This document shows positions 21,402-64,000 of a DNA stretch of 64,000 bases, in pieces; position 1 is the stretch's first letter; every line of letters starts with the position of its first letter. The stretch is from IMG/VR virus record IMGVR_UViG_3300031576_000006, positions 52,232-116,231 of that record; one strand, written 5' to 3'. Source of the DNA: a virus. The position numbers and the translations under genes are program-made. The notes under the pieces were generated by a model, which saw nothing but the letters and a program-made list of their open reading frames with translations, was not told the DNA's origin and did not search any database.

Positions 21402-24400
21402 ATGGCAACGCCAGTAACTCGTAGTTTTCGACAAATCTTCAAGGATATGGTTCGCCAGTACGTATTCACATCCGGCGTAACCGACCTTAATAAGGGTTCG
21501 GCCAATAGATCTACCCTAGAAGCAGCTGCTTTATCTGACTTTAAGACTCAGGGCGATATTATGGCTGCTCTGGCATCAGTTGATATCGATCGTGCAGAAG
21601 ATTCCGATCTGGATAAGATTGGGTTCGCAGCTAAGGTTCCGCGCCCACAGGCCAGAGAATCCAATGGTATTGTTACTATATATCAAAAGAATTTCACCAA
21701 AATATCTACAAAGGTCTATCAAGGTACTGCCGCACCTCCAGCCGGTTCTGCTACTTTAAATATAGCCGATTCTGCCGGGCTTCCTGCCTCAGGATCTGTT
21801 TATATCGGTCGAGGAACAAATAACCTCGAAGGTCCTATAGCCTATAGCTCTATTCTATCTCTTGGATCTTTTTTCCAACTAGTTCTAGTAACCCCGACCA
21901 CTAAGAATCATAACGTAGGCGAATCTGTAATTCTTGCACAAGGCGGCAATCGCGCAGTCGGTGCTGGTGCTATTGTCCAAACAAAATCCACACTTACTTC
22001 ACAATCGGTCACATTTAGGACAATTAATTCAGTAACACTTCTCGATGGCGAGATGGAATTGAAAGATGTTCCTGTAATTTGCACACAGGTTGGAAAGATT
22101 GGAAATGTTACAGCTAACGCAATTGTAGAATTTGCGAGTGAGCCATTTCCTAATGCGGCCTCAGTAAATCCACTTGGGTTTGTATCTGGCCGTGATGTAA
22201 TGTCTAATATCGATTATCGAGAACTCATAAAGAAATCAGAGCAATCTCGTGTAAAGGGTACGGATGAAGCCATTAAATTAGCCGCTAACGGCGTCCAATC
22301 GACAGATGATAATCAAACTGTTACTTCGGCTGAAATCCGTAAGCCTGCTAATCGTGGAGAACCTTCCATTCTCTTCTTAGATAACTCCACCGGCTATCAA
22401 CCTATCTTCAAGGGTCAGGGTTTTGAACAGATTATCGATAGCGCAAACGGCGGCGAGAAATATTTACAACTTCAACGTGAAGATGTTGTTCGCGCAACCG
22501 TTGTATCGTCTATTGAAACACCATTCGCTATTACTGGTGGAATGACTCTATCTGTTAAGGTCGGCGGCGTTTTAAGTGAGCACATATTTAATGCTTCAGA
22601 TTTTTTAACAGAAGGTGCAGCTGACACATTTGAGGTTATCAATTCAATAAACAATAATCCAACCCTATTATTCAATGCTCGTGGATTCAGCAACAGCAGG
22701 AAGATTGTAATATTTTCTAGATCATTCAAAAATGAGGATATGCAGGTAGCCGTTCCTAGCGCAGGAGTTGACGCAAATGAATTCCTTGGCTTTCCTAAGA
22801 CACTAACATATTCGCTACGCTTATATAAAAACGATGACCTGCTGATTAAAGACGGAATTATTCCTACAATATACTCGAACGCTCAAAATACTTGGAACAG
22901 TTCTATTACCAACGGTGCAACTCTAAAAGTCAAGGTTGATCAAACAAGTTTTCAGGCCATTACATTACTTGACGCCGATTTCGTACCGTTTGGTTATGCT
23001 ACCGTCAACAAAGATAATGCACTTTCAGCCTGGGCTTCTGTTTTGACAACTAAACTCGCAGGTGTAACCGTGTCCGTCGAGGGCAATAAACTAAAAATGG
23101 TATCCAACCTTGGCGCAAACGATAGCGCACGACTAGAAGTTAGTGACAGTCTTGTTGCTAACAGCTTAGCTCAGGGCGACAATATGTTTGAACCTGAGGT
23201 ATCTCAGGGCGTAACATCAGACTATTCCTTCAACAGATCTACCGGTCAAGAAGAACTCGCCGCTGTAGCAGCAACTAATGATGTATTTACAGCTGGATCT
23301 AGATTTACTCGCGGATTTATCGACTCTGGAATTTTTACATCAGGCTCTTTGACACTTACAGCTTCGCCCGTTCCTAAACTTTATTTCATTGTGGATCAAG
23401 AAGCTGCTCGCATAAGCGTAAGCCTTTCAAATACTATCACAGTTTCAGTTACTAATCCTTCTTCCAATGTTTGGCGTTACACATTTTCAGTAGCCGGTGT
23501 AATTACTGGAGTACTTAGAGATGATATTGTTATTATTACAGATAACACAACTTTATCGGCCAACAATGAAGGTCACTGGAGAGTGAACGCAGTGGACGGC
23601 GCTGGAACTTGGTTCGAGGTAGTAAAAACTACAGGAACGATTGAAGGTCCAATTACACTCACGGGTGGAAGTGATTTTATTTTCGTTAGATCCCCCTTCG
23701 GAGAAGTTCAAAGTGTTGATCTTCCGAGCGGATTACAAACCCTTACTGCTTTGTCTAATACAATCAGGACTCTTCAAGGATTAACTGCTGAAGTTATTGG
23801 TGGAAGAAAGATCAGAGTATCTACGTTGTCGTTTGATCCAGACGTAGGTCACATCTTCCTGGCCGGTGAGAACACTAATGCTACTACTCTTGGCTTCGTC
23901 ATAGGTGATTCCGATACATCCGAGATTAGCCACACAGCCTTTAATACAAGTCAAAAGGACCTTACCTTCATAGAATTCTTTCATGACTCTTTCGCAACTG
24001 GTGATTCATCTACTCCATATACATCTGTCACAACTACTGTCAATCTTGACACTGCCGGGTATGAACCAAATAATAAAATTGGATTTCTAAACCCATATGG
24101 TACAAAAATATCCTCTAATCGCAAAATGAACACAGATATTGACAATATCAATGGTGTAACCCTTTCATTGCGTGACTCTGCTAAGCTCCGTGAAATTATT
24201 GCAAGCGATCGTTATTATACTGGCATACCATTCAACTTTAATGCGTTGGATAATATGGTCGTAGTGCTTGACAGCGACACGATAAACAAAACTTTCAATA
24301 TAAAGATGGGTCGTCTTGCTAAGATTTACAGTTCTCCCAATGCATCTACATTTAAGGCATACGACTTAGACTTCGGACCCACAGCTAATTTCCCATCTGG

Positions 24401-46090: not shown

Positions 46091-46272
46091 TACCGTCGCC
46101 TGAGTTTTGGTTGGCAGTATCGCCACTTATTTTTGCAATAATCGTTGGACTATTTCTGACCAATCACAATCTTAAAGTGGCACACAGAGAAAGAGAAGAA
46201 AGAATCGCTAGACGCAAGGCCAAGAAAAAGATCATTTTAGCAATTCCTCCGAAGAAGCTTCTGGATACCTAG
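46087..46272 (+). CDS. Small membrane protein
   Basis: N-terminal TM helix and basic tail; last plus-strand gene. Confidence 0.55.
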   Translation: MIPSPEFWLAVSPLIFAIIVGLFLTNHNLKVAHREREERIARRKAKKKIILAIPPKKLLDT

Positions 46273-49200
46273 GAACTCCGTCAGGTTTAATATACCTGAT
46301 TCCAGTAAAAACAGCTAATTGAACTACAGTTTGTTGTGGTTGATCTTCTGCAAATGGAGGTTCTTGAATATAACAATCTCTTCTCCATTCAAGATCGATT
46401 TTGGTATTTTCTTCAAAAAGCGGATGTTCAAAATTCAGCACATATACACGAGCAAGGCCTATTGCGCCGACTTCAAACGTACTAATATATTTCGCACCCT
46501 CTGGCATAATTTTTAGTATCAAGTTAGTGACACGATAGTTCATCTCTTCATTGCTGGCATCTTTTCCTCTGATCGCCATCCATTGATAACTAATTCTATG
46601 TTCGAAATAGACTCTTCCCATAAAATCTCCAAAGTCTAATCACGTTTAGTTTTGTCATTTGCCTCTAATTTCAGTGATATATCTAAACTTACCTCAATGT
46701 TCCAGTCGGTATTGCAGTATTTTTTTGGACCCTCATATTCATTTTCACAATAAAAATATATTTTAGTTGGGGTACTTATTCTCGGATATGATAAATATTC
46801 TTTACCCATATCTTTTTTATGTAGTATGCCGCATCTTGGACAGTTAGATTCAAGAACTATACCTGGCAAATAAAACCGCTTTACGTCAACAATACCTTCA
46901 CATTTACCATTAAGTTTTGTCATTATTCTTCTCTGTAACTTCAGGCGATTGAGCAATATCTTCGACCAGATCTGCTGGTAGGGGCCGCGTAATCGATTCG
47001 ATCACAAAATTGGTCAGTTCTTCCAGTGCCTCTTTATTGGGTATTTTTGGGTATACAATTGGGCCATTACCCTCGTTCTTGATGTACGAAACAGTTCTGT
47101 TAGGATTTGGAGGAATGACCTGAACTGCAGTTGTGAAGGGCGGCGGCACATAAGCCGGTTGCTGGCCTGTATGACATTTCTCTGCCTGGATAAGCGTATC
47201 GTAAACCGTTAGGCATTCAGGGTTGGAACACTTGTATTTCATTAATCCACCACCACAATCTCACGCCATAGAATGTCTACATTCTCACCATCTGGGTTAG
47301 GCGCAAACTCACCCATCAACCACTTATCTGAAAAAATCCATTTCGTTTCATCTTGTTTGGGAAGGTTCCGTTTCCAGCGTTTCCCTATAAATGTTCCAGT
47401 TGGTAATGTTGTTGAATAGTTTAATAGCGCATCAAAATCCACCTTTGTCATTAAGGCTGTTTTCTCATCCACAATAATTTTGCTTTTGGCTGTGGCAGTC
47501 AAATATTCAATATCAAATTTGCCCATCATTTCTTCCCTAATCCATCCCATGGGTCGAGCTTGTCGAGCCGGTTTAGTCTCCAGTCTGGAATTTCCTTGTA
47601 GATCTTACTCTTGTCTACTTTACTATTTTTAATGCCCCACATCCACCACGGATTGGGGATGCCCGGAATCTTCAAGTAGACTCGCTTTTCGTTTAAGCGT
47701 GCAGCTGCCATGGCACTGCAAAGTGATTTGTGTTTTGTGAACGGCCTGCAACCCTTTCTTATCTCATTGTATAAGACGTAATAAAGTGCCATTTTAAAAC
47801 CCATCATTCATATGTTCGTCTGTGGCTTCTTGGCAGTAAAAAGCATGGGTTGTTTTACATACCTGACACATCACGTCTTCACTTAACATCCATCCGACCT
47901 TGATGCCCGTGCTGCAAGCGTACCCACTATGAACCATTTTATTAAGCGGATGTTGACAGGTTTTTTTCAATTGCTTCTTTTTCTGTTTAAGTTTTTTAGT
48001 CAAGGTTTTTATTTCAATTGCAGCTAACAATATGTCGTTTTTCAAGTCCCTAACGGCTTTTCTGTTTGAATCGCTGGCCCTTGTAGGAAACTTGCTTTTA
48101 AGATATTCAACGGTGTTTTTGTACATCAATACCCTGTAATTATCGCTTTTGACTTCAGCTGACTTGATCAGATAGGGAACAGTGTATCCAAACATACTCA
48201 CACCTTAATCAGACACTATGGAGGCCATAAGTATAGTCCATAGTGTAAATGTTAAAAACCATATAAAAAAGGTTAATCCGCCGCCAAATAGTAGCATAAT
48301 GCCGCCTAGGGCGATCCGGCCCATTTCGGTTTCTGGATTAATCCAGTTCCAAAACCCGTAGCCAGCTAGAACCGGCAATGAAGCAATGCTTACAGCTATG
48401 AGCGTGACAATCACCGCGAACAATGATTTAATCAAAAACATAAATCCCCTATCGTTCATTTTTTTCATCTACTGTCTCCCGGTCGGTCACCCGGCCACTT
48501 TAATCGATCTGGACTTACCTGAATATGAATGCAACTTGTCATTAAGCACAAGAATAGTATAACAAAGATCGCGACACTAAACCAGTCAAAAATAGCATTT
48601 TCTGTGAATTTCATTCATCCTTTTTCTTATAGTCACTAAACCACTCAGACATCAAATACGTACATGCTGCCACCTTATGTTCGTGCTTCGGACCCCATGA
48701 GCCCATAATAGATTTTAAAGCCCGAATAGCTTTGCCTTTATCCACACCTTCTTTCGATGTGAACTGCTCTGCTCTAATTCCAGTGAAAAACCAATCATTG
48801 AACGCCTCATGCCAAATTGTTCCATTCGTCTTCCAAAACTCTTTCGGAATGTCTTCTTTCTTTGGAATATGTTGAGCGGTTGGAAAAGCAATATCGGCAT
48901 CACTAACTTCAAATATTGGAATCATATTATCCCCTCAATCCTTCAAATAACGGATGGACATAATCATGAAGAAAATTCACTCCGGTCCAGGCTGATACCA
49001 GCATAACGAATGCAAGACTTAATGCCAGTATAACAATTGTAGCAACCAACAGATCAAACCCTTTGGAAAGCAATCTTTGGATTCTATCTTTCAGTGGTTC
49101 CTTTTTCATAATTTCTCCGCATGCACCCGTAAGCTAACGGCAATATCCTGCAATTCTTCCAAGCTCAGTTCGACAAGTTTTTTGTCTTTTATTTGCTCCA

Positions 49201-49306
49201 CTAAAGCATCAATTCTCCAGCTGCACTTCGTTACTTCTCCTCGCACCATATCTGCAATCTTGTTATTAACAATATATCTGTAAGCATATTCTTTACTCAT
49301 CTCCAC
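46232..49306 (-). other. Cluster of about ten small coupled hypothetical genes
   Basis: ORFs 46232, 46636, 46910, 47242, 47526, 47794, 48205 (2 TM), 48611, 48927 (TM), 49106 are co-oriented and overlapping or abutting. Confidence 0.7.
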
Positions 49307-49950
49307 ACCCCATTATCCCAACGTTCGTTCCAGATTCTTACTCTTTCTTTAATATAGTCCCTGGTAATTATTTCAGATTCGTATTCTATTGAAGAAAGCA
49401 GGCAGGCAGACGAGTCATTATCAAGTTCGTATGGCTCATCCAAAAAAGATAGAAATTCACCAGGCATTACACCTTCTGCCATTGCCCACAAAACAACATA
49501 ATACATGGCGACGAGTCGCTTACTGTATTCACCTGCCCTTAGTTCGTTGTTTGTGAGAAACTTATAAGTTTCAAGAGATCTATTTGTTAACCTTAATTGT
49601 GCGGCCAGCATATGTTGTGGAAGCTCCAGATGTTCTGTTAAGAAATCAATTAGGTCCCTGCCGCTATACCATCCTCTGTCCATATATTCCATAGCTTTGT
49701 CTTGAATAAGAAGCCTATTGGCCAGTTCCCGTTCTTTATCGGTAAGCGGTGTGGACTTTAGCGGTCGCGGGAATATATAAGATTTGAGATTAGCGACTTG
49801 ACGTGTTGCGTCTTTCAGCCAAAATTTGAACCGGAACCATTTTGTTGATTTTATATTAAATACTTTGCCCATAGCATCAAAATCCTCCACGTCTTTTTCT
49901 TCTTCAGCGACCTTTTTATACCATTTTGGAGATGCCGAGAATTTAATCAT
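49297..49950 (-). CDS. HTH-containing protein, possibly Xre/MbcA antitoxin-like
   Basis: LELPQHMLAAQLRLTNRSLETY HTH followed by RL..MY.V...FL.EP. Confidence 0.4.
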   Translation of the reverse strand: MIKFSASPKWYKKVAEEEKDVEDFDAMGKVFNIKSTKWFRFKFWLKDATRQVANLKSYIFPRPLKSTPLTDKERELANRLLIQDKAMEYMDRGWYSGRDLIDFLTEHLELPQHMLAAQLRLTNRSLETYKFLTNNELRAGEYSKRLVAMYYVVLWAMAEGVMPGEFLSFLDEPYELDNDSSACLLSSIEYESEIITRDYIKERVRIWNERWDNGVWR

Positions 49951-50099
49951 ACACTGGAACTTTCCATTCGTTACTATTTGCGATGGCCGACTTAAACTGT
50001 ATACGTATTTCTACACAAGCCCATCGTTGCTCGGCAGTTTCCCTGGCCGTTCTTCGTTGAACTAGCCATCCAATTTCAGCAAATTTGAGAATTACAATA

Positions 50100-50354
50100 T
50101 CATACTTGCCCATTGTCGCCCTTCATCATCAACCCTTTGACTCTTATTTTTAATTCTATATCTGTTTCGCCGCGAAGTCTAGTGATTGCTGTTAATGAGG
50201 CAAGCCTATCTAAATCCTTACCCCTTACTCGCATCTTTCTTAACGCCCACCAGAGTATAAGCCAATGTATTGGATTTGCCTTTATATAAGGCCAGGCCTC
50301 TTTTAAAACTTCCCATCTCAATCTGAGATTTAGTCTCATGAATAATAACCCCAA
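50100..50354 (-). CDS. Small protein with baseplate-wedge-like motif
   Basis: GKDLDRLA.L..I.R..GETD.ELK.RV. Confidence 0.55.
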   Translation of the reverse strand: MGLLFMRLNLRLRWEVLKEAWPYIKANPIHWLILWWALRKMRVRGKDLDRLASLTAITRLRGETDIELKIRVKGLMMKGDNGQV

Positions 50355-52059
50355 CTTTTGTTGATGCAGATAACCGGACCTTCAATTATAATTTTTAGGT
50401 AATAGGTTCGCGGTATGTGCTTGATTTCGCTTGATAATCCAAAATATTTTTTGATACTGACAGTATCAGGCTCCAGCCTTTTCCTAAAGATCACTCTTTC
50501 GCCATCAAACCTATAATCACCATTTGATAGTTCGGTTCCATTTAAAAGTACCTTAATTGATTGATTACCCTTTGTGGAAAGTATTTTAGCTAAACCCTTT
50601 ACTCTGGCGCGGCAACAAAATTTCCAAACGTGAATATATCTATGAGAAATCGTCCTTTGGCTTTCTATTTCAACTGAAGCACCAATCATTTGAAATTCCC
50701 ATTCTTGTCAAACCATTTCGGGTGCTTTTTTAAGAGCTTTTTCTTACCCCTGGCGAACCGCTTATGAATCTCTTCATCTGACATATATTTGAACATGCGA
50801 GGTTCATTCAGTGGGTGAACCCAGATCTTGAATTCATATTTATGATCGCGAGAATTCCATTCAGCCCGGCCATGCTTTCTGGCAGTACTGCGATTAGTGT
50901 AGACTCCTTCGATGTAACTATGGAGATCTTCATCGCCCCAACGGTACATTTGCACGACATATAGCTTGAGCTTTTTGGGCATATTAAAACTCCCCTGTAA
51001 ACCAATCGTCTACAGGAGTACTTCCACCTTCATTGACGGTAACAAATCCAGACCATTCAAATACCCTATCGTTAATGATTACTCGGTTATTGGAAATTTC
51101 TTCGGCATCATATTCTCTAACATCATAGTTTCCCTTCTTGGAATACTGAGATGCTACCGGATTGTTTCCAACACCGGCAAGCAAAAAGAAAGCGATGCGG
51201 CGATCGGCATCTTCCTTAGATTCAAAGGGGCCACGGTAATGATTTTCATAGGAACAATATGAGCATCCAGTTCGACATTCAATTAGAAATATTTTCATAA
51301 CCACTCCATATATTCATTGTATGCTATTGCTGCCTCTTCCAGGGTACTGAACGGCCCATGTAGCTGTTCAACTTCATCGCAATGGTACCAGCCGGGTGGG
51401 TATTCTTCAGTTCCTTTGTCCAATAAAACTATTGGTGGAATATGATTCGGCTTATCCCATGGTTTACCGTCTGTATCATAATGTTTAGCACTCATGGTGA
51501 CCACACTCCACAGATTTTGCAACTACTATCAGATCTGTCATAACTCCTGAAAGTTTCAAACTCATGATCACACATTTTTCGTAGTTTGTCCAATTTTCTC
51601 AGGTAAGCATTCACGGCTTTATCGTGTATGACTTTTGCCTTTTCTATTTCCAACTTAATATTAATCACTTTAGCCATTAGATTTCTCCCCGAAAAGGATC
51701 GGATGCCACTTATCTACGAACTTTACGAATTTTGATTTGTACTTGTACTCATTATAGTGTTTGGTTTTGGAAGTTATTTGAGATCCATATCCGCCCCAAG
51801 CCTTACCGGTTTGGATATATGATTGTTGTTTGTCTTTTTGAATCGAAATTATCTTCAATGGGTCATCCTGGTAAGAAGGTTCTATACCAATTCTAATCGA
51901 ATCATCATCAATATGAAAGTCAAATCCATCCCAATGCTTGAAATAAAGTTCAATGGCTTCATCGGCAAATTTTTTGGTTGGCAGTTTCGGTCCATTATTG
52001 TCTAATAACTCTGGATCTGGGTTACCTAGACCAAAACCAGAAGCAATACGGTGTCTCAT
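50336..52059 (-). other. Cluster of six small coupled hypothetical genes
   Basis: ORFs 50336, 50686, 50984, 51295, 51492, 51670, co-oriented. Confidence 0.7.
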
Positions 52060-52205
52060 TTGATTCGCTCCGGCAAAAGCCAAAGACTGCAAAGTACGAG
52101 TGCTACGACAGATCCATTGATTACATCCATAAGGCCTGGCATCGTATGGGCATAATACCAGCCCTGAAAGAAGAGTCCAACAGTGGCTAAGATTTTTATA
52201 AACAT
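52056..52205 (-). CDS. Small two-TM protein (49 aa, below ORF-track cutoff)
   Basis: MFIKILATVGLFFQGWYY...VVALVLCSLWLLPERIK; ATGA overlap with the next gene. Confidence 0.55.
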   Translation of the reverse strand: MFIKILATVGLFFQGWYYAHTMPGLMDVINGSVVALVLCSLWLLPERIK

Positions 52206-52213
52206 ATTAAACG

Positions 52214-52552
52214 TCATAAAAGCTTCAATTCTCCAGTAATTTTGTCAACTTCTTCATCTTCAGCCGGGCCAATACCAACGGCTGTAAGCGTTTCTACCCC
52301 GTGGAATTCTGTAAGACCGGCATCTTTTATTAGAACGCAAGGTAGTCCGGCAGTTTTGGCTTGATTATATATTTCTACCAGTTCAGCTTCAGAGTTAACT
52401 CCGACACAGATTTTTGTTTGACGGCCAATCCAGGCATCTCTCACTTCCTGAGAGGCTTGCAGGTAAGCGTATAGGCATGCATGACTACCCTGAGCAACAC
52501 ATTTGCCCTTTCTCATGTTTAAATCCTTGCGCAACACAATTACTTGTTTCAT
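52214..52552 (-). CDS. pth2: Peptidyl-tRNA hydrolase, Pth2 family
   Basis: KQVIV.RKDL.M.KGK..AQ.SHA, TKICV, DAG.TE, T.VGIGP, ITG.LKLL. Confidence 0.95.
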   Translation of the reverse strand: MKQVIVLRKDLNMRKGKCVAQGSHACLYAYLQASQEVRDAWIGRQTKICVGVNSEAELVEIYNQAKTAGLPCVLIKDAGLTEFHGVETLTAVGIGPAEDEEVDKITGELKLL

Positions 52553-52767
52553 TCCACTACCTGTCGCACATAGCTATCACACCAGTTGATAGCCTTTTGT
52601 TGAGCATCTCTGCCATCCCGTTCACTAAACACTTTTTTTACAGATGGCATAGTTTTATGCATTACTATAAATTCTGAACTACATCCATACGGTTTGCGTT
52701 CTGTTTCAAGCTCCCGAACTTGAGCAACTTCATTTTCATAAACAATACCTAGATCATGTGTAGACAT
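52549..52767 (-). CDS. Hypothetical protein
   Basis: 72 aa between Pth2 and the RF-like gene. Confidence 0.6.
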   Translation of the reverse strand: MSTHDLGIVYENEVAQVRELETERKPYGCSSEFIVMHKTMPSVKKVFSERDGRDAQQKAINWCDSYVRQVVE

Positions 52768-52770
52768 ATT

Positions 52771-53226
52771 TCAATTCTCCCCATCATCACAAAAACACTG
52801 TTCGCAGTGAACACATTCTCCACAGTCTTCACAAAATTCGCATTCGAAACCTTCTTCTTCGCAATCTCTTTTGTTCATCGAAATCCATTTACCATCTTCA
52901 CTCTTAACTTCAGTCTTGATGTTGGATTCCTTCATAGCATCCTTCACCTTATCTTCGATAGCAGCAGCCTGCCCAGTTCTTCTGGCTACTTCGGCTCGAT
53001 GCCAAGCCTTAAACTCTTTAGTGCCAGCCATGCGCTCAAATGCCTTTTTGCGATTCTGATCCTTAGAACGACCCTCTTCGGATTTTCCTACGGCACCGCT
53101 AGCAGTATGGGTACACCTAGCACAGTTATCGGTCTTATTCTTCTTTTGACCGCCACTACCGGAACCTCTAAAATAGTCCCACCTGCAGTCTTTAGCCGTA
53201 ACCGAGAATAGTAATTTCTTACTCAT
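52771..53226 (-). CDS. Class I release factor GGQ-domain protein (ArfB-like)
   Basis: RGSGSGGQ..NKT...R..H..SG.....E.RS..QN...A..R; likely start 53226. Confidence 0.9.
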   Translation of the reverse strand: MSKKLLFSVTAKDCRWDYFRGSGSGGQKKNKTDNCARCTHTASGAVGKSEEGRSKDQNRKKAFERMAGTKEFKAWHRAEVARRTGQAAAIEDKVKDAMKESNIKTEVKSEDGKWISMNKRDCEEEGFECEFCEDCGECVHCEQCFCDDGEN

Positions 53227-53578
53227 GAAATTCACACCTGTCTTTTTCAAAATGGAACACTATTGAGTCAATCTTGATTTCTTGTATTAGACCAAACCGT
53301 TCAGCATTTCTGAAATTGATAGAATATTTCCTGGCCATTGCGACTTGACGGTGTATGGTTTCTCGAAAAGTCTCTAGGCCGTGTGTACATTTATAATTAT
53401 TACACTGAAAACATACAGGCATTAAATTCAACTCTTCATTGGTACCGCCAAATTCAACTGGAACGACATGGTCTATTTGGAGTCTATCCGGCTTAACCCC
53501 ACAATAGCCACAGTTGCCGCCGTACTTAGCCTTGATTTTTTCTCTAAGACGCTTTGGAAGGCTAATTCTTTTACTCAT
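53219..53578 (-). CDS. HNH endonuclease
   Basis: CGYCG, IDHVVP...GG.....NL...C..CN..K. Confidence 0.9.
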   Translation of the reverse strand: MSKRISLPKRLREKIKAKYGGNCGYCGVKPDRLQIDHVVPVEFGGTNEELNLMPVCFQCNNYKCTHGLETFRETIHRQVAMARKYSINFRNAERFGLIQEIKIDSIVFHFEKDRCEFHE

Positions 53579-56500
53579 AACTTGCTTTCAATAATTTCAA
53601 ATCTAGATTAATCAAAGCGAAATCTACCGGCATGTTTGGTTTTAAATTAATTTTCAGCGTCTTCCCATCATATGAATGTTCGCCAACCTCACCTAATGAT
53701 TCGTCAGAGTCCGGTCGTCTTAATTTGTTGTCATCGCCAAGAGTCAGTCCGTGATGAAACATAAAGTACGCTTTTACGAGGGATCTCGAATGCTCTTCTG
53801 GAGTTTGAATTATAAATCTATCCTCTAGAGCCTTTTTAAAGGATTCGGAAATTATTCGGGCTGCATCTTTTACATCCATTACATTGCCGTCCTTTGTAAT
53901 TTGCGTGGCCAACCAAAAATAACAACCACTTGTTTAAGGTAAAAATAGAAGCTGAGGTAGTATCTTTTGTGCATATCACTGATCGTTTGCTCTGGCATTG
54001 CCATCATACCAATAGTTCTATAATCATTACCATTCAATTGGAATTCAACAAAATAACGTCTTCCGAATTTCATCAGTTTGGCTTTTTGTAGGGATCTGTT
54101 TGCATTTTGGCCGGACATTTTATTTTCGTCATCATACTATCCATGATGTGTTCTTTTTCTTTAGACGGAATGATCCAATGGCCTTTGATCATTCCGAGCA
54201 TCACATATTCACCATGGTCGATATCGACAAGTTTTTCAATGTAAAGCCCGTTACTGAAGCACTGGCCGACTTCATACTTGAAAGATTTCTTTGATACAGA
54301 GTATCCTGTAAGTAGGCCAATCAAAAGAGCCAGTGTGGCTATAATAAATATCTTTATTTCTGCTTTCATCTATTAGGACCTTCTTTGAGTTTTCTTGTCT
54401 TAATCCACTCGGCATATTTGAGAAGCCATTTACCAAGTCTTTCAGCCTCTATAGCCTGTCGCTTGTAGGAAACGTCTCCATCAAACAAATATAGATCTTC
54501 AAGGATAACCACATCTCTTCTTACAAGCCCATCGCCAGACTCGGCAAACTGTTCAGAGTAAAAATCTTCATGAACTCTTGCTAAGGTGTATTTTCCGTAT
54601 GTTTCAATACCAAAGCTATCTGGAATAGGTTTAGGTTTTCTTATTGTTTTTGACACTTTAACCCTTTCAGTTTGATTATAGATCCCGTTTCCCTTTATGG
54701 TGAATTTACTAAGATCGTCTCTAGTGTAGGTACCTTCATAGTTTGGGGATATCCATCTAACTTTCCAGTATCGTCCATCCACCCGAATGATCTTACCCAC
54801 CAACATTAGAAATCCTTCCATTTATACTTACAATCCTGACACCAGATCTTGTAGTTCTGCCAGCCGAGCTTACCATCTTTGGTTTCCCAGTATTCACCAG
54901 TACGGTGCCAATGGATTAGACAGTGTAGCATCACCTTGATCCAATCAATCATAAAAACCTACTATGTGAACTCACCAATCTTGGACTTACTTTAATTTCG
55001 ATAGTTTCTTTTTTGAATGTTAATTTGACTTGTTCAACAATTAAATCGGTTCTTAAAACCGAACCGTTTGGGTCAACGACAGAAACGGTTTTACCAATAG
55101 AATCCATTAATTGCTTGGTTTGCCCTTCTCCTAGTTTTTTTACATCGGCAGTGAAGTAATTGAACCAGTTAGCCTCAAATAGGCCAAAATGTTGACATTC
55201 ATTCACAACAAGCATATATCTATTTTTTACTTCTTTACACTTTTTCTTACCCATAATGTAGCTTTTACATCCTCATTTATAAAAAGGCCTACCCATTCTT
55301 TTTTCGAAAATCCTCTTGGGTAGAAACTTAAACGATACCCGTCTTGCTTGGCAAAGTCAATGTCTTTCAGGAGCCCAACCTTTTGTTCACCCGGAAGCAG
55401 CAGGACCATTCCATTACCTAGCATAATTATACCTTCATAGCTTTTATAATATTTGAAATTGGATTTGCTTTCTGGTTGCGTGGGATCAAATTTAGGATTA
55501 AGGCTACCCTTAGGTACATCATCACGATAAAACACCAAGCCCATACACTCCATACCGGTTTCATAGTAAGTTTGTAGAATGCCGGTATATTTGTCATAGT
55601 TCTCGCTAAGGGTTTCAAATGTAATAATGGGTCGCGGCTGCCTGCTTTTAGGATAAAGATGTACAAGTTGATGCCAGTAAAGTTTTCCCTCATTGGCCTT
55701 GATCCATTCCTTGGCAGGCTTTTTCTTCATAAAAAGCTGTTGGTGATAGCCAGTAAAAACTTCTTCTTTCAGGGTATAATTGACAGCGTATTTATCTAGA
55801 CGTTTCAAGCCTGCCTCTCATTACCAGTATGAATTTCCTCAAGAACTTTATCCCATGCCTTTTTTTCTTGTTTGTGTTTAAAATACAAAGTCTTATTCAG
55901 GAGCCCGGCAAGAAATTTTAAAACCGGATACGAAACGTAAACATCAAACCAAGTTGGAATTATGAAACAGTTGGGTTCTCCTAAGAACACGGCATGTCTC
56001 ACGTATTGATTTTCATCATCAATGTTAGCCGTAAGTCGGGTAAGTCCATTGAATTGCCAAATCAGAGATTTGTTTGGGTTTAGATCGATGGCCCTTTTAA
56101 GTTTTTCAGCATATGGCGTAGCTAGCAATGACTCTAAAGATCCTGGAATTACTTCTTTCGGTTCTTTTAGGGACGGATCGGTGAAAGTTCTGAACTTCAT
56201 AAACATGTCATCGGTTACATAAAAAAATCCACCGTTCACTTCCCACGAAGAATACAGCCAATGGCTCATGTCATTATAGCCTGGAGAAAAATAAAGTCTT
56301 GGTTTTAATCCTAATCTGATCATATTTTCTTCCTATCGCAATGTTTGCAGTATTCGTAAGTTTCCTTAAGGCCGTGATAGGTCACATCTTCGTGATTACA
56401 AGTTTGCAAATTATCTAATATGGGACCAAAAGTCACATTGTTAAATGTCCCTATTACCTTGCCCGTGGTTTTATCGACAACAGTCGCAGTAAACATATTG

Positions 56501-57162
56501 TTTTGTGGAATCTTATCCCAAACTTTATCTACATTAAAGGCCTCATAGTCAAAATGAAAACGCGCCCCTAGATGATCCCATTCGACCGTATATCTATCTT
56601 GAGTGTAATCTACTAGATGTATATTTACATTAACAATCCTACCGGTTTTACCAGTATCCTGGGCCTGAAATCTATCGCCGATAATGAACTTCATCATTTA
56701 TCCCTTGTAAGAATCCGATCAAGCGCATCAAGCAGATTACCTTCACCTTCATCTCTGAAGTCTACTGCGATATCTGGACCTGCACCACGCAAAGTTAATC
56801 GAAAGATCTTCATATCGCGAGTATCAAGGGCGAAATTAATGTATTTGCCTCTGAGGCGTCCGGGTTTACCAATTCCATGACTACCCCAAGATTCAAGGCT
56901 CCAAGTAACATGTTTGTTCTTCTTGATCCATTTAGTCAATTGGGTAAGACTAATTTCTTTTAGGGTCTTTGGTTTACTCATTTCCCACCTCTAATTTATG
57001 GTCGTTAAGGTCATATGTAGGAAGCTCGCCTTCACCACACTTAGGACATTGAAAATTATCCCAACATCCTGTCCAGGATACATTACAGACGTAACAAGCC
57101 ATATGCCTAGAGTATACTGGATCAACTGCGGAAAAGTTACCTAAATATTCTGGTTCATTCAT
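53571..57162 (-). other. Cluster of about eleven small coupled hypothetical genes
   Basis: ORFs 53571, 53879, 54073 (N-terminal TM), 54366, 54806-54952 (48-aa Cys/His protein not in the track), 54949, 55227, 55805, 56320, 56694, 56974. Confidence 0.7.
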
Positions 57163-57629
57163 TCGAATACCTCCAATTTAGTATTACTAGATAAAAAGAG
57201 TGGATGTTTTGGCATACCGTCTTTATTTTTACCAAGGCAAAAAACTTTATAGTCTCTAGGGAAAATTCTTGAGTGGAGCCTTGCCATCTTATGAGAGCCC
57301 CATGCCGCAACAATTAAGCCGTAACGGTGTTTGTCGAATTGCTCGACCCAGTGTTTTTGATTCTCTTCACCAACTGGAAAGTCTATGATTAACAGGTCTT
57401 TAGGTTTCGTTGCTCGATAAGCGTATAGATTTATTACTGTCAAAGAAGTACATAGCTCTCGCTCAGCAAATCCAATACAGCGACGAATTGTTGGGTCATT
57501 TTCGGTTGCATCGGCAGTACTGGGGTTGAGCATAATAAAAAGGCAAGGCTTAATGTGGCGAACAAGCTGCGGAAGGTTGCGAGTTAGAACGTAACGGTAT
57601 TTTCCACACTTGCTGATTATGGCACTCAT
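57159..57629 (-). CDS. DUF1643 family protein
   Basis: S.CGKYRY.L.R, FIMLNPSTADA..NDPTIRRC, NLYAYRAT.P, AAWG, P.HPL. Confidence 0.9.
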   Translation of the reverse strand: MSAIISKCGKYRYVLTRNLPQLVRHIKPCLFIMLNPSTADATENDPTIRRCIGFAERELCTSLTVINLYAYRATKPKDLLIIDFPVGEENQKHWVEQFDKHRYGLIVAAWGSHKMARLHSRIFPRDYKVFCLGKNKDGMPKHPLFLSSNTKLEVFE

Positions 57630-58567
57630 CAGCCCTTCCTTAATTCCATACCCATATTACTTATAGGCATAGGTTTTTCTTCAGGTTCAAAGTTTTCACC
57701 AACTGGATAATTATCTTCATGATAGTTCGGTTCGACCTCAACGGTTTCTTTAAAGTCTCGGCTATTCTTCAATCGTGTAAGGATTACATTAAGTTCTTGT
57801 TTCAAGATAATGTGGCCCTGTATTACTTCTTTCATTTCATCGATCGACAAACCTTTTGATTGTACTGCCAAGTCTTTTGCCATCGCCCTGTTTTTGAGCT
57901 TAGCCATATAATAGGCCATACGTGCGGCAGCGATTGGATACTTTACTTCAACTACTGAAGCGAAGCGTCCGGGGCGTCGTAGGCGCAAAGGAACTTTATC
58001 TATGTAGTTCGTGGTTGCCATATAGATAACGTTTTCTTTTTGAATTTCACCATCCAACAAAGAAAGGAGGGTCGCTTCATATCGTGCGGCCATACGGTCA
58101 AATTCTTCGAATACTACCATCGTTAAAACATTTGGAGAAATATCGTCGATCACCTTGTATGCGACTCCCAAAAGGCGCGGATCATCAACATAAATCACTA
58201 TGCCGCCTAAGGCTACTACATCTCTCATGACGCGCTGTACGATTATGGTTTTTCCAGTACCCGGACTTCCATGCAGAAGGGCACTGCGTTTGTATAAGTA
58301 TCCGTATTTTTTAAATAATTCTCTAATTTCATTTTGTAAAAACAATTGTAGTTCTTGAGTGACCTGTTCATACTCAGGCGAAGGAAGGTCTAAGATCTCA
58401 TCTGACAAAGCTTTGGCTTCTTCAAACCAAAAAACAACACGATTAATGTCAATATGTGGAGTATATATTCCAGGAGGTAGTCGTGTAAGAATTTCACCAA
58501 AATCTCTATTGGCAGTCAACTTGTTATTTTGACGACTAAAACTGTGGTAGGTTTTTGCTTCGCTCAT
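57629..58567 (-). CDS. AAA+ ATPase
   Basis: Walker A GSPGTGKT, Walker B VVFEE, TTN....P....RPGRF. Confidence 0.9.
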   Translation of the reverse strand: MSEAKTYHSFSRQNNKLTANRDFGEILTRLPPGIYTPHIDINRVVFWFEEAKALSDEILDLPSPEYEQVTQELQLFLQNEIRELFKKYGYLYKRSALLHGSPGTGKTIIVQRVMRDVVALGGIVIYVDDPRLLGVAYKVIDDISPNVLTMVVFEEFDRMAARYEATLLSLLDGEIQKENVIYMATTNYIDKVPLRLRRPGRFASVVEVKYPIAAARMAYYMAKLKNRAMAKDLAVQSKGLSIDEMKEVIQGHIILKQELNVILTRLKNSRDFKETVEVEPNYHEDNYPVGENFEPEEKPMPISNMGMELRKG

Positions 58568-58815
58568 TTTGCCTCCACCGTGTCGAGTTCTTTGATATCT
58601 GACTCCATAATCCTAAATGCGTCTCGATATTTAAACGTGGATAGGTCTGGATAAGGATTTGATCTATCTACAATTTCTGCGTCCAATTCACCGCGCTTCT
58701 TGAAGCCTTCAAGGAAGGCCCATTTTGCAATTAATTCTTCGCGTGTGTTTTGAATATCGGTCTTTTCATATCTATCATAAATATATTCTTCGACCAGTTG
58801 TTTTTTTGATTTCAT
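58564..58815 (-). CDS. Hypothetical protein
   Basis: 83 aa, coupled. Confidence 0.6.
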   Translation of the reverse strand: MKSKKQLVEEYIYDRYEKTDIQNTREELIAKWAFLEGFKKRGELDAEIVDRSNPYPDLSTFKYRDAFRIMESDIKELDTVEAK

Positions 58816-59570
58816 TCTTTCTCCTTAGTTGGCTCCATATCAATATTTTCTTGTTGAAATATTGTAAGTTCTGGGAATTGTAAGGCGGTCAGCTTGCCAA
58901 GTCCATCTTTTTTGTAATTTATATAACAACATCCAGTATCGATATTTGCATAACAATCCTTAATTCTTGGATTATCACCATGCGGTGTGTGTCCAAATAC
59001 GTTATAAACACCCGGAATTGCTTTGATATTAGGAACTCTGTTCCATATCATAGAATTCTTGAATGTAAAATCATTCCATCCATCTGCCATACTATCTTTG
59101 CGATGCCATACGGGGTGGGCTGATGAATGCGTCACCAATAAGTAACGATCTTTTGCATCTTTCACATCTGGATATTCCAAATAGTAGGGAAGTTCGTCCA
59201 TCCAAAGCAGATCCGATTGAAGCTGTTCATTGTTTTTAATGGCTTCCAGATTATTAATAGAATCAATGCCGTAGCTTTCAAGCGTAACCTGTCCGCCATT
59301 ACGAACAAAATCACCGATATTGTCATTATAGAGCAAGGCACTAACCATCATAAATTCGTGGTTGCCCATAACGCAATCATAGCCACGTTCCCTGACGAGT
59401 TTAACGATCTGCGCCGAACGTGGACCGCGATCGACAAGATCCCCGCCCAATGCGATCTTTTGATCTTTGGGCAATTTATCAATCAAAGCAACGAATGTAT
59501 TATAACATCCGTGCGGGTCTGTAATGACGATGATACTATTAGGTAAATCGTTTGATGGTGAGGAATCCAT
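58812..59570 (-). CDS. Metallophosphoesterase (Ser/Thr phosphatase-like)
   Basis: D.HG, GDLVDRG, GNHE, FGHTP, IDTGC; likely start MDSSP at 59570 with AAGGA RBS. Confidence 0.9.
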   Translation of the reverse strand: MDSSPSNDLPNSIIVITDPHGCYNTFVALIDKLPKDQKIALGGDLVDRGPRSAQIVKLVRERGYDCVMGNHEFMMVSALLYNDNIGDFVRNGGQVTLESYGIDSINNLEAIKNNEQLQSDLLWMDELPYYLEYPDVKDAKDRYLLVTHSSAHPVWHRKDSMADGWNDFTFKNSMIWNRVPNIKAIPGVYNVFGHTPHGDNPRIKDCYANIDTGCCYINYKKDGLGKLTALQFPELTIFQQENIDMEPTKEKE

Positions 59571-59733
59571 GTCTTTTATCCTTATATTCACGTCTAATTG
59601 ATGGATCTTTAGATTGTTTTTTGAATGCAAAACAAAAATGTTCATTTTGTCTAATATGTAAAGGGCGAATACTTTGGCCTATATATCTCTTTCCGTTAAA
59701 AACATTCAATGCACAGTAGATTATCCCTGTCAT
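59539..59733 (-). pseudogene. Truncated GIY-YIG endonuclease remnant
   Basis: GIIY...N..NGKRYIGQS...L..R..EH, then similarity is lost; only 64 aa. Confidence 0.65.
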
Positions 59734-60359
59734 CTGTTTCTCTTCTCTTCCAAAAGCTGCTTGGCTTTGATAACGGCCTGTGCTGACAGTGGGTGCCCAT
59801 GGGGAAAGTCAACGGCAAATGGATATTCATCCATATTGATACCCAAGTCTTCACCCATTTTAACCCATTTGCGTTCCATCATGTCATAGTCGTAATCGCT
59901 GATAAGGGTATCGGCCATCTCATAATAGAGATACTTGTGGACCAAAAGATCAAGCATAAGACTGCGCATCTCTGGGCTCATCTTGGCTTCGATTTCATGA
60001 TATTTTCTGTATGTTTCAGTCATTCTAATATCTTCCATTTTCCCCAAAGCCTCTTTTATTTTGGCAATGGTATCTTTGATTATAGAGTAATTGTCCATAA
60101 CTTTCAACTGATCAATTGCAACTTCCAAAACTTCTGTTGCGATTTTATATTGTGATTGGAATATGTCGCGTTCTTTTTGTACGAAATTTTTAGTAGACCT
60201 CAGGTCTTCTGCAAATTTCTGTTCTTCATTAAGTTCCTTCTCGGAAGCTTCTAACATATTAATAATCCAAACAAAATCATCACATTCTGGTCGAGGATCT
60301 GTGATCAATGGATTGGTCTTTTTTATGTTTTCTAGCTTCAGTTTATTTTCTGGTGTCAT
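59730..60359 (-). CDS. Coiled-coil protein with C-terminal NAD-ligase domain Ia-like module
   Basis: LVHKYLYY......ISD..YD motif; likely start 60359 (TAATG overlap). Confidence 0.65.
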   Translation of the reverse strand: MTPENKLKLENIKKTNPLITDPRPECDDFVWIINMLEASEKELNEEQKFAEDLRSTKNFVQKERDIFQSQYKIATEVLEVAIDQLKVMDNYSIIKDTIAKIKEALGKMEDIRMTETYRKYHEIEAKMSPEMRSLMLDLLVHKYLYYEMADTLISDYDYDMMERKWVKMGEDLGINMDEYPFAVDFPHGHPLSAQAVIKAKQLLEEKRNR

Positions 60360-60604
60360 TACTGATACCTGAGCGTTGCACTCTTGAATAATATGCCGGA
60401 GCAAACCACACCATAGATCGTATGGCCGTTTTTAGTACCCCTGAATCCTGTGTGATACCAATCGTCCTTACTACAAGAGAAAAACTGATATCCGGTCATT
60501 TCAACATTTGTAATTCCTTCATATTCCGCAACGCGCCTAGCTTCAGGTTCATTAGTGCAGGCGGCCATGGCCAAAAATAAAAGTACCAAAAGTTTTTTCA
60601 TCAT
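60359..60604 (-). CDS. Putative lipoprotein
   Basis: MKKLLVLLFLAMAAC lipobox-like; GY.FF.CS.DD...TGF...GVVC.G. Confidence 0.7.
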   Translation of the reverse strand: MMKKLLVLLFLAMAACTNEPEARRVAEYEGITNVEMTGYQFFSCSKDDWYHTGFRGTKNGHTIYGVVCSGILFKSATLRYQ

Positions 60605-60957
60605 TCTTCTCCTAATTTTTTGATTCGTTTATCGGCGTTACTAGAAATAGAGAGACCAATTTCGGTAATCCTTGATCTGCGGATAATGTTTCCTTCTCGT
60701 TCAATAATTTGACCACCAATTGCGGGTGTCAACAACTTGGCAAGATCTCTTGTTAAAAGATTATCTGGGGTATCAATCTCATACTTTAACAGATTATCCT
60801 CTTTAATAATTTTTCCAATACCTAGGGGCTTCTTTTTGTCAAACTCATAATAACAATGAACCGTTTCGGGAAGTTCAATTTGAGTATTCGGCGGGAAAGA
60901 ATCTCCAGCAGAATCCAGCTGACCATCTAAATTAAGAATTATACCCGTGAACTTCAT
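60601..60957 (-). CDS. HK97-type prohead-protease-like protein, catalytic residues apparently lost
   Basis: F.G......DS.GD.F, F(for H)D...PLG, ED..L, A(for S)IGG, I.EI.L...A...I. Confidence 0.55.
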   Translation of the reverse strand: MKFTGIILNLDGQLDSAGDSFPPNTQIELPETVHCYYEFDKKKPLGIGKIIKEDNLLKYEIDTPDNLLTRDLAKLLTPAIGGQIIEREGNIIRRSRITEIGLSISSNADKRIKKLGEE

Positions 60958-61223
60958 TTCAAGCCTCCGGTTGCCGGGAACGTGGCCGCACTAAGATTAT
61001 GTATTTTTTTCTGAAGTTGAAGTATTTTTTTAGTTCTCAGTATATCGGCCCGTTCAAGGGCTAATTCGTAAGTTTCATGCCAGTCTCTGCCTTTACCATG
61101 AAAATATTCTACGTATGAATTGTGAGATCCTGAGAGAGTTTTAACCATGCCATCCCCGCACTCTTCGACGATTACACTTCGGATACCTTGAGTTAATGCA
61201 TATTTAGTGACAAATACTTTCAT
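60954..61223 (-). CDS. Conserved phage hypothetical protein
   Basis: TKYALT.GI...DWH.T.E.A...A...R.KKI. Confidence 0.7.
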   Translation of the reverse strand: MKVFVTKYALTQGIRSVIVEECGDGMVKTLSGSHNSYVEYFHGKGRDWHETYELALERADILRTKKILQLQKKIHNLSAATFPATGGLK

Positions 61224-61233
61224 ATGATCTCCT

Positions 61234-61758
61234 TCAATAACAGACCTTACCGCGAGTAATTACGATATCAAATACTATCTTGCCACGTTTTATTTTCAAT
61301 GTCAACGAGGTACCTGGAGTTCCTATAATTTCAGGCTGGTTGATTGAAACAATGATATCACCGACCATCAGACCGGCCAAATCAGCAGGGTAACCCTCAA
61401 AGACATCTACAATGCCGTAATCATTTATGGCACGAATATAGCCTTCTCGTATGCCAATACCTCCATACCACTTGTCAGGGCACTCTTTGTCCACATTGTG
61501 CTTACGACGTTTCTTTTGTTTAGTAATAATCTCAGATTGGTGCAGTGGGGTCTCGATTAATGCAACTTCAACGATTTTGATTTTGGGGATGATATTAGCT
61601 ACATCGACGCCCTTATACCTCGCTCCACCCTCACCGCCGTCTTTGTCGCCCTTACCCTTGCCATTTCCACCGGAACCCATGGCTACCGATATAAGGAAAA
61701 TAGCATGCAATAATATACTGCTGACGAGACTTATTTTTTCATGTTTTGAGAGAGCCAT
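61234..61758 (-). CDS. Membrane-anchored PDZ-domain protein
   Basis: S.LLH TM anchor, Gly linker, YGGIGI...V.EGYPA..AGL..GD.I.....G.PGT...L.I.R. Confidence 0.8.
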   Translation of the reverse strand: MALSKHEKISLVSSILLHAIFLISVAMGSGGNGKGKGDKDGGEGGARYKGVDVANIIPKIKIVEVALIETPLHQSEIITKQKKRRKHNVDKECPDKWYGGIGIREGYIRAINDYGIVDVFEGYPADLAGLMVGDIIVSINQPEIIGTPGTSLTLKIKRGKIVFDIVITRGKVCY

Positions 61759-61952
61759 TCCGTGCGCCTTTCGCTACATATGGCATTGTAAATATTATCA
61801 GGCTTCTTAATGAACTTCTTGAGGCAGGGAGAATCAGGGTAAAGCTGCTGACAACGTATTTTTGCCCTATCTAGGGTAGTTTGATCTACCTTATTCCAAG
61901 TGCTTGTAAGATTTACAACAATAACAACAAGGCAAACGCCCTGCGAGATCAT
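61731..61952 (-). CDS. Small Cys-containing, probably exported protein
   Basis: Hydrophobic N-terminus; C...YPDSPCL...Y.AIC. Confidence 0.6.
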   Translation of the reverse strand: MISQGVCLVVIVVNLTSTWNKVDQTTLDRAKIRCQQLYPDSPCLKKFIKKPDNIYNAICSERRTEWLSQNMKK

Positions 61953-62326
61953 TTCATTCTTTCCTGAATTTGAGATTCAAGGTCTTCTTGACTGTTTGGA
62001 ACTCCTACGATCGGAATAACGTTTTGACCGTTAGTTTTTACAACGATGATGGTCGGAAGGGCATCTACCTGACGAGCCAAAGCATTATTGGTATCCACAT
62101 CGACCGCAAAAAACTCAGCCTTGCCACTCAGTTTCTTTTCAGCTTCTTCGTACATAGGGGCAATCCTTTTACAGGCACCGCACCATTTGGCGTAGAACTT
62201 AACTACAACGACTTTTCCAGAATTGACAGCTGCAAACAACTTTTCACTGGCGTCTTGTGGACCTAATTCAGTAACCGCAAACGATGGACTGGACAATAAC
62301 ATAAGCATTAAAAGTAATTTTTTCAT
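61949..62326 (-). CDS. Thioredoxin with signal peptide
   Basis: MKKLLLMLMLLSSPSFA signal; FYAKWCGACK, VDVD, LPT. Confidence 0.9.
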   Translation of the reverse strand: MKKLLLMLMLLSSPSFAVTELGPQDASEKLFAAVNSGKVVVVKFYAKWCGACKRIAPMYEEAEKKLSGKAEFFAVDVDTNNALARQVDALPTIIVVKTNGQNVIPIVGVPNSQEDLESQIQERMK

Positions 62327-63840
62327 GTTTCATTTCCTTCTTTTTTTTCGAAACGTTCTTTTTTGCCACAATCACATCCAGCACAGTATGGGGCTGGGAT
62401 GGCTTCATTTTTTATAACAGACAATTTAACGTCATGATCTTCTGGCATCGCCAGAAGGACTACTTCAACTTGATTGTTTTTGAATTTTTTCCGGAAAGAA
62501 TCTCTCAAATCTCCCATAATTTTTTCATCTAAAAATTCTTCGCCTTTCACAGTTACGACCAGGGTGTCTCCAGGCTGAAGGCTAAGTTTTTGAACATCAA
62601 CTTCATTTAGTGTAATTTCCATATTTACTACCCCCGTTTTCCATAATATACCTCTTCTGAATAAGGAACCCAATCTTTAGCTTCAAAAAATTTCTTGAAA
62701 CTAGTCTGTCTTCTTTTAAGATCGGGCTCCAAAACAAACCAAAATTCTATTGAAGATAGGTTTTGATTTTCAGCCTTGGCTTGCACCGAAGAAATGCTAC
62801 GCCGCCCATCTTTCATCAAATATATAAGTGCTTCAGGAAATGACATATTTTTCATAAGAGAGGTCCTCCATGCATACACGATGCAAAACAATAAAAAATT
62901 CCAAGAATAACGACAGATTGAACAATGCGCATAATAGCTTCGGGCCAGCCTATAGGCTCTTTCATTTATTCCTCTTCTTTTGGCATTTGACTTCCACTGT
63001 GCATTACACAAAATGTTTTGTTTGTTCCGTTTGCAACAAGACGACTATATGGCTTACCGGTCAACTCTTCTCCGCAGACGGAGCATGGCTCTATTTTTTG
63101 AACGTATTTATGAGTGGCAACACTCCACGTAATAATTTCTTCATCCGGCTTCATCATCCATTCTCGATGATTTTGATCGGCTTCGGTAAGCCTTTCTCGA
63201 ATCCACTTATTGTGACTATTTTCCTGATATACTCTGGTTTTCATGGCCGACCATAGCCTTTTAAAATAAGATTTCCAGGACATTTTATGGCCGACAGAAA
63301 TGTCTTTGGCGTACCAAGAGTATAGCTGATAAACGGATTGTTTTTCGCAATGTACGAGTCTTTTAATGATCGCTTGCACACGAAACAGATAATCCGGCGA
63401 AGCTTTATCTAATTTTTCAATTTCACGAGATGCACTATGGACTGTCATTTATTCCTCCTTTTTAAATTAAGAAGTGCCTTAAGTTTTTTCGTGGATTTTC
63501 CAATTCGAGCAAGACTTTCTCGAAGTCCAAAAACTTCTAACTGTAATTTTTTCTTATCATTAACACAATCAACACACCCTGCTTTTAATTTTTCACCAGC
63601 CTCACCCTTGCGATAAAGTTTCCTTTTCAACTCTTCAACTTCAGCCAGTGCGGCGTCCCGTTCCTTTTCTGTGCCGTAACGCTTCCTAGCTTCTTTAAAC
63701 CCATATTGCTCGGTTTTATAAAAGCTCGCAATATCAATGAACTCTTCTGCACCCTGTGGATCATATGGGTCTACATTATCAACCACCTCAGGAGTTTCTC
63801 CGTCCGGCCAGCCGATCCAAACTTTTTTAGGTTCGCTCAT
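62323..63840 (-). other. Cluster of four hypothetical genes
   Basis: ORFs 62323, 62628, 62966, 63445, co-oriented and overlapping. Confidence 0.7.
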
Positions 63841-64000
63841 TTGGAAACTCCAAACAACTGCGGCGCCCCTACACTAGAAACCAGTTTGTACTCCGGTAAA
63901 GGCATTTCATTGATTAACGCCCACTCCAACATCCACTCTTCAGTAATTTTTGCGACTTGATTTGATTGAGGTGTATCGCCCTCTAAAATTGCTAGAAACC

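Follow-up and report, generated by a model that had tools for sequence, protein, structure and literature searches.

A predicted prohead-protease-fold protein lacking catalytic residues in the small accessory gene array of an uncultured Mx1-like myophage

The prohead proteases with an assemblin fold, namely T4 gp21 (MEROPS S77, PDB 5JBL), the HK97 gp4-type enzymes (S78, PF04586) and the herpesvirus assemblins, are the closest known systems to the protein described here. The HK97-type proteases are targeted to proheads by tails. Catalytically dead paralogues such as the pseudo-caspase cFLIP and the iRhoms regulate or block their active relatives, and at some defence sensors a phage inhibitor competes with the structural trigger, as DSAD1 does with the tail tube at DSR2. 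The wedge proteins Baseplate J, gp47 and P2 gpJ (Pfam PF04865; newer families PF26776, PF26078 and PF26079) are the reference for a second protein considered below. The activity of prohead proteases ranks among the main triggers of the cyclic oligonucleotide-based antiphage signalling system (CBASS), which these enzymes activate by cleaving a CD-NTase loop (Hobbs and Kranzusch; 2026 preprint; PMC12991175). Here we analysed the final 64 kb (64,000 nucleotides, hereafter the window; bases 52,232-116,231) of the 116,231-bp IMG/VR virus record IMGVR_UViG_3300031576_000006, which is estimated to be 76% complete and belongs to an uncultured myophage resembling Myxococcus phage Mx1. The open reading frame (ORF) at window position 60601 (genome 112832-113188) encodes a protein that is predicted to keep the fold of a prohead protease and to have lost its catalytic residues, and it is called the pseudo-protease below. 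A previous reading made by eye (the sequence-only reading) had placed this ORF with five others in a candidate set of virion-protein decoys. The six ORFs, named by their first window coordinate (Table 1), were all confirmed in position, on the minus strand and among non-structural genes.

The pseudo-protease was modelled with AlphaFold2 (AF2), with a predicted local distance difference test (pLDDT) score of 82 and a predicted template modelling (pTM) score of 0.70. Foldseek comparison of the model with BFVD gave 52 matches at E ≤ 1e-3 with query TM-scores (TMq) of 0.6-0.79; the named matches were mostly prohead proteases or protease-capsid fusions, and some proteins of ~120-140 aa from Vibrio and Microbacterium phages, all uncharacterised, were matched as well. 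The best Foldseek matches in PDB were herpesvirus proteases. Using VIA-align, T4 gp21 (5jbl) was ranked first (Z 8.9, root-mean-square deviation 2.5 Å over 103 of the 118 residues), followed by the proteases of varicella-zoster virus (Z 8.2) and human cytomegalovirus (Z 6.6), with MCE domains far lower (Z ~5). An assemblin-type beta-barrel fold was thus confirmed at the level of the model. As a separate observation, a phage 'PI3K/PI4K catalytic domain' protein is also among the BFVD protease-fold matches, and a 976-aa protein of the same record (genome 1813-4743, outside the window) has a weak PI3/PI4-kinase match (E 4e-5).

A local sequence relationship links the pseudo-protease to the protease of Mx1, whose genome is 169.6 kb and whose major capsid protein is 52% identical to that of the present phage (genome 30043-31425). 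The Mx1 counterpart is annotated as a 1239-aa 'putative prohead protease', and its N-domain aligned locally with ORF 60601 by blastp (E 3e-4; segment YSIEGATLEREGN against PAIGGQIIEREGN) and by hhalign (E 0.004, with a probability of only 8.5%). The two proteins are colinear at IDSSGE/LDSAGD and at NYEH/YYEF, and they share the motif order DSxG[DE], YE[H>F] and [S>A]IxG..EREGN, in which YEH of Mx1 is replaced by YEF and YSIEG..EREGN by PAIGG..EREGN. Because the motifs are colinear, the position of the catalytic His is assigned to Phe39, and Ser138 of Mx1 (YSIEG) is aligned with Ala79 (PAIGG). Together with the AF2, Foldseek and VIA-align results, these two substitutions bear out the claim that ORF 60601 is prohead-protease-like with the catalytic residues lost. 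In the Mx1 polyprotein, only residues 239-324 match the first ORF of the record (genome 92-361), which places the true protease domain just past the 5' end of the record, so the cut falls either within the true protease gene or directly behind it. No match was found in the record to the S78 or S77 profiles (PF04586, PF03420) at E ≤ 10.

The pseudo-protease belongs to a large family. Four homologues of equal length share 46-52% identity with it, and an exhaustive profile search with a cut-off of E ≤ 1e-3 recovered at least 451 representative clusters, nearly all of them stand-alone proteins of 112-145 aa. Column statistics and the Pfam and PHROG tests were taken over 102 family members. The His-equivalent column is F78/Y9 and no column of the alignment exceeds 30% His, while the Ser-equivalent column is A56/C24/S9/V6; a conserved His or Ser column was not found across these members. 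The residues D15, G18, G46, P78, G82 and D109 are near-invariant, and a C-terminal tail, NADxRIKKLGE, is conserved and is of low confidence in the model. None of the 102 members matched Pfam and one matched phrog_3270 (head maturation protease, E 2e-4). The family is large and conserved, and it is without a Pfam family or functional annotation.

Further searches with the family were performed in several directions. A hidden Markov model of the family had no significant match among the proteins of the phage itself, no match came from hhalign of the family against the two proteins (157 aa and 311 aa) that are encoded upstream of the capsid gene, and the family profile found chance matches only among PDB sequences. 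Searches of IMG/VR with the family queries A1, A2 and A3 plus a back-translated NADxRIKKLGE pattern, and a scan of genome contigs for the family, were likewise negative. In the papers searched, neither a description of such a dead prohead-protease-fold family nor a phage precedent for a regulatory pseudo-enzyme was found. One candidate member was rejected: P0007 (3038 aa) matches profile positions 57-110 as many as 25 times (E 1e-59), and since it consists of EGF-like repeats the match was treated as spurious, apparently a compositional or repeat artefact. In another member, P0102 (236 aa, from metagenomic contigs of up to 177 kb), an N-terminal YspA/SLOG-like domain (PF10686, E 9e-5, under the curated cut-off) is fused to the pseudo-protease domain.

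The pseudo-protease gene and the capsid gene are more than 60 kb apart and on opposite strands, and the former is within an array of small genes. Comparable surroundings were observed elsewhere. In the groundwater contigs L006 and L007 (35.5% guanine plus cytosine (GC); 37% identity), the family gene lies within a same-strand array of 50-250-aa genes that also carries homologues of ORFs 56320 and 54073, and relatives of the Nlig-Ia-like and 47794 genes come after it in L008 (52% identity). In L014, a 61-kb IMG/VR contig of 50.6% GC, it has a CHAP protein as its neighbour and a gpA-type terminase 3 kb downstream; in this 16-kb locus it is the sole gene in common with the present phage, and neither the S78 nor the S49 protease family matched in the L014 record. 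Mx1 has no copy of the pseudo-protease, though its capsid is of the same type. Because of these contexts and the absence from Mx1, the gene behaves as a mobile accessory gene and not as part of a head module. As to the immediate neighbours, the 81-aa protein encoded directly downstream (window 60359-60604, minus strand) has a lipoprotein-type signal, MMKKLLVLLFLAMAAC, and a thioredoxin encoded 1.3 kb upstream (window 61949-62326, minus strand) has a signal peptide, so that several exported proteins are encoded in the array.

Three features together argue for a binding function: the fold is retained, the catalytic dyad is lost and conservation is strong. The pseudo-protease keeps, in the model, the beta-barrel core of a T4 gp21/Mx1-type protease, has the motifs in the order seen there, with Phe for His and Ala for Ser, and would act as a non-catalytic binder occupying something that a real prohead protease would bind. 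Since the gene moves about without being tied to any one head module and has small accessory genes around it, its target would more likely be a factor of the host than the prohead of the phage itself, and an immune bait that senses proteases, for example the CD-NTase activation loop, is one candidate. As prohead proteases cleave this loop (PMC12991175), a dead protease that binds the bait without cutting it is a concrete and testable mechanism; as the CBASS trigger is protease activity, the dead copy would more plausibly shield the bait loop than occupy the sensor. Indirectly in favour of a decoy are the small-gene arrays in unrelated phages, the absence from Mx1, the lack in this block of a strict copy of the upstream motif of virion genes (described below), and the CBASS trigger. 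Overall, we lean towards the interpretation that the stretch is part of a small accessory gene array in an Mx1-like myophage, holds no coherent mimic set, and encodes one genuine dead prohead-protease derivative acting as a non-catalytic binder. Fold, catalytic-residue loss, family size and genomic contexts are direct results of the analysis; binding, target and timing we infer from them.

Several points weigh against this interpretation. An alignment of five sequences underlies the model from which the fold is known, and neither Pfam nor PHROGs (E ≤ 1) recognised the protein itself. The protease domain of the phage lies outside the record. Using tblastn, three different family members found no family member among 50,697 cultured phage records, which leaves no experimental handle. 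A sigma-70 scan of the block found promoter-like sites not in excess (48 observed, 51.8 expected); early expression of the array would therefore have to be presumed from gene content and strand. Finally, a head-assembly role would be equally compatible with the modelled fold.

The window features are listed in Table 1.

Table 1. Features of the window discussed in the text, in window coordinates.
Feature	Coordinates	Strand	Evidence or remark
Pseudo-protease: 118-aa minimal protein of predicted prohead-protease fold, catalytically dead; unannotated family of ~120 aa	60601..60957	-	AF2 model, Foldseek, VIA-align, family alignment
79-aa orphan; C-terminal ~45 residues tentatively resemble the N-terminal helical motif of Baseplate J proteins	50100..50339	-	Atlas neighbours, P2 gpJ motifs
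1854-aa virion protein with the phage's real Baseplate_J domain (comparison reference)	21402..26966	+	PF04865, E 3.7e-9
113-aa ORF, TTG start, Atlas record begins at residue 12; sheath-C-terminus likeness unsupported	53571..53912	-	
125-aa protein, small N-terminal domain and C-terminal zinc-ribbon; tube-like strands unsupported	56320..56697	-	
110-aa ORF, Cys/His-rich N-terminus, then Pro-rich; virion beta-module unsupported	46910..47242	-	
117-aa ORF; virion beta-module unsupported	50336..50689	-	
Co-directional array of >50 mostly small non-structural genes	46232..64000	-	runs off record end

The start and stop codons of the array genes often overlap, and the recognisable members are all non-structural: AAA ATPase, metallophosphatase, DUF1643, HNH, RF-1-domain, PTH2, thioredoxin, PDZ and Nlig-Ia-like proteins. 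Upstream of virion genes, a 25-bp motif, TA[AG]NTT[AG]N4[AC]A[AG]AACTTAAT, was found in 10 strict copies, all on the plus strand, and the minus-strand array block contains no strict copy. The copies at window 21326 and 31315 (plus strand; genome 73557 and 83546) are immediately upstream of the 1854-aa J-like gene and of a 700-aa gene, respectively. A direct-repeat search in the block gave no signal. Proteins of the window are also present on a 162,719-bp contig, and megablast of the flagged block against the phage records gave no DNA-level match to any cultured phage. Within the array, genes for a PTH2 peptidyl-tRNA hydrolase (112 aa) and an RF-1/GGQ-domain protein (159 aa, Cys-rich tail) are two genes apart with a 72-aa ORF between them (window 52214-53250, minus strand), and could form a ribosome-rescue or peptidyl-tRNA release pair countering translation-targeting defences.

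The sequence-only reading had also seen a baseplate-wedge motif in ORF 50100, a likeness to the sheath C-terminus in 53571, a pair of tube-like strands in 56320 and virion beta-modules in 46910 and 50336, and had regarded the likenesses of 60601 and 50100 as strong. The first of these two is firm and the second is tentative. ORF 50100 probably encodes 79 aa from the ATG at 50339, which overlaps the upstream stop as ATGA, and this start/stop coupling suggests that it is translated. Its ESM Atlas model has a pLDDT of 0.58, and structural neighbours in the Atlas carry Baseplate_J_N/M/C or Phage_Wedge1 in 6 of 10 rows, with 6 of 10 rows dominated by viruses; the TMq values are 0.48-0.54 over residues 31-79 of this low-confidence model. 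In P2 gpJ, GNDLDVIGANYNTTRL followed by ESDTDYRLRI parallels GKDLDRLASLTAITRL of 50100, which is directly followed by GETDIELKIRV. On this basis the helical hairpin found at the N-terminus of Baseplate J may be present in the protein, and the chances that the homology is real are roughly even.

The explanation with which this likeness competes is that 50100 and the four weaker candidates are ordinary phage orphans with chance matches of 10-15 residues, 50100 being at most a decaying J-like gene fragment with no function of its own, and we give it somewhat less than an even chance. In its favour, no homologue of 50100 was found among 5.8 billion proteins, and the profile, sequence and structure searches were all negative: Baseplate_J PF04865 did not match the ORF and no structural family of Pfam or PHROGs matched at E ≤ 1, tblastn against the 50,697 phage records at E ≤ 10 found no baseplate gene, and the AF2 single-sequence model was poor (pLDDT 60) and without a Foldseek match. 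In the genome PF04865 matched the 1854-aa protein only, and the wedge DUF2612 Pfam model had no match. A homologue search with P2 gpJ returned only proteins at least 79% identical to it, which is too shallow for a useful profile. In a shuffle test, 50100 gave p = 0.06 against P2 gpJ, and against the phage's own J it gave p 0.001, a value not robust to multiple testing. Against the chance explanation stand the Atlas rows, the start/stop coupling and the position of 50100 as the single outlier when 46 small ORFs were chain-aligned with the N-terminus of the phage's own J (z 4.3; next 2.4). The chain-alignment shuffle test was nevertheless rejected as evidence for 50100, because unclaimed pairs of many tiny segments gave similar or higher scores (z 3.9 and 5.8), and comparable z-scores from unrelated tiles count on the side of chance.

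For the remaining four ORFs chance is the best reading. The Pfam and PHROG searches at E ≤ 1 assigned a structural family to none of the six ORFs, blastp of the six against all 185 genome ORFs gave no match to any large protein at E < 1, and tblastn against the phage records (E ≤ 10) gave nothing structural for 53571, 56320, 46910 or 50336. The claimed sheath likeness of 53571 was without support in Pfam, PHROG, BLAST and Atlas searches: its tblastn matches were hypothetical proteins only (E ≥ 3), the sheath-C-terminus model PF17482 had no match in the genome, and its Atlas neighbours were lipocalin-like and DUF clusters with TM < 0.5 and not sheath proteins. The tube-like strands of 56320 fared no better in Pfam, PHROG and BLAST, as the T4-type tube model PF06841 did not match in the genome, PHROG matches were to families of unknown function only (E ≥ 0.019), Pfam matches were none, and tblastn against the phage records found none either. 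For 46910 and 50336, Pfam, PHROG and BLAST gave no virion beta-module, and tblastn detected no relatives in the phage records. ORF 56320 shares a 24-residue C-terminal zinc-ribbon (58% identity, E 2e-5) with the genome ORF 39261-39734 (minus strand, outside the window), the only real blastp match of the six ORFs within the genome, and it has a 148-aa homologue in the groundwater contig L006.

Returning to the pseudo-protease, it might instead regulate the phage's own head maturation: as a paralogue without catalytic activity it could dock in the prohead, or could pair with the true protease, and thereby time or limit cleavage, either as a dominant-negative or as a regulator in the manner of cFLIP. 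The fold and the local sequence shared with the Mx1-type protease agree with such a role, and the conserved tail NADxRIKKLGE could by analogy serve as a docking peptide. The distance of the gene from the capsid gene, its opposite strand and its place among small accessory genes speak against it, as do the lack of a copy in Mx1 despite the same capsid type and the presence of the gene in an otherwise unrelated phage (L014) with a gpA-type terminase. We therefore consider this role rather unlikely, and keep the non-catalytic binder of a host factor as the preferred interpretation.

A much wider version of the preferred interpretation can also be formulated, in which the dead-protease family would be a widespread counter-defence that keeps the substrate groove and shields CD-NTase bait loops from the real protease late in infection, with 50100 as a second, independent example. 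This version appears quite improbable. Least probable of all, and indeed very doubtful, is that the six proteins are a set of early-expressed, non-functional mimics pre-occupying host sensors of virion or assembly proteins. There is some support for two of the six resemblances, and immune triggers are known among structural and assembly proteins, prohead proteases included (PMC12991175), but the other four are unsupported in profile, BLAST or Atlas searches, no test against a control gave enrichment, chain-alignment z-scores of ~4-6 were also obtained for unclaimed pairs, and a dead copy does not mimic protease activity, the trigger known for CBASS. Because the resemblance fails for four of the six ORFs, neither a 'set' nor an enrichment is shown, and one strong plus one tentative case among ~52 small genes is not enrichment. 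The broader idea of a full set of virion-fragment decoys was thus not borne out.

What stands in its place is a family with members among the small accessory genes of unrelated phages and with none in the cultured phage records searched. Given that prohead protease activity triggers CBASS (PMC12991175), the pseudo-protease is an obvious candidate modulator of host protease sensors or of the timing of the phage's own protease.

Compared with the described systems, the two proteins stand at different distances. ORF 50100 has the P2 gpJ-like patterns G-x-D-L-D-x-[IL]-[GA]...T-R-L and E-[ST]-D-x-x-[LY]-[RK]-x-R-[IV], and J or wedge clusters are among its structural neighbours; it differs from Baseplate J proteins in having 79 aa and not 300-1850 aa, in having neither the beta-barrel nor the C-terminal domains, and in being an orphan with no profile match and with low-confidence models throughout. 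With the prohead proteases, the pseudo-protease is predicted to share the beta-barrel core, and it has the motif order of the Mx1 protease N-domain. It is only ~60% of their size, with Phe in place of the catalytic His across its family and the nucleophile position taken by Ala, Cys or Ser, and is a stand-alone protein with no Pfam match, encoded far from the portal and capsid genes. The likeness to DSAD1-type inhibitors would be one of proposed logic, in that a small accessory protein may disturb immune recognition of a virion or assembly protein; the difference is that CBASS senses cleavage (PMC12991175), so a dead protease would shield the bait and not mimic the signal. cFLIP and the iRhoms differ in being eukaryotic, and they are similar in that the pseudo-protease, too, appears to keep an enzyme fold, to have lost the catalytic residues and to be conserved as a family, which by analogy would imply a binding function.

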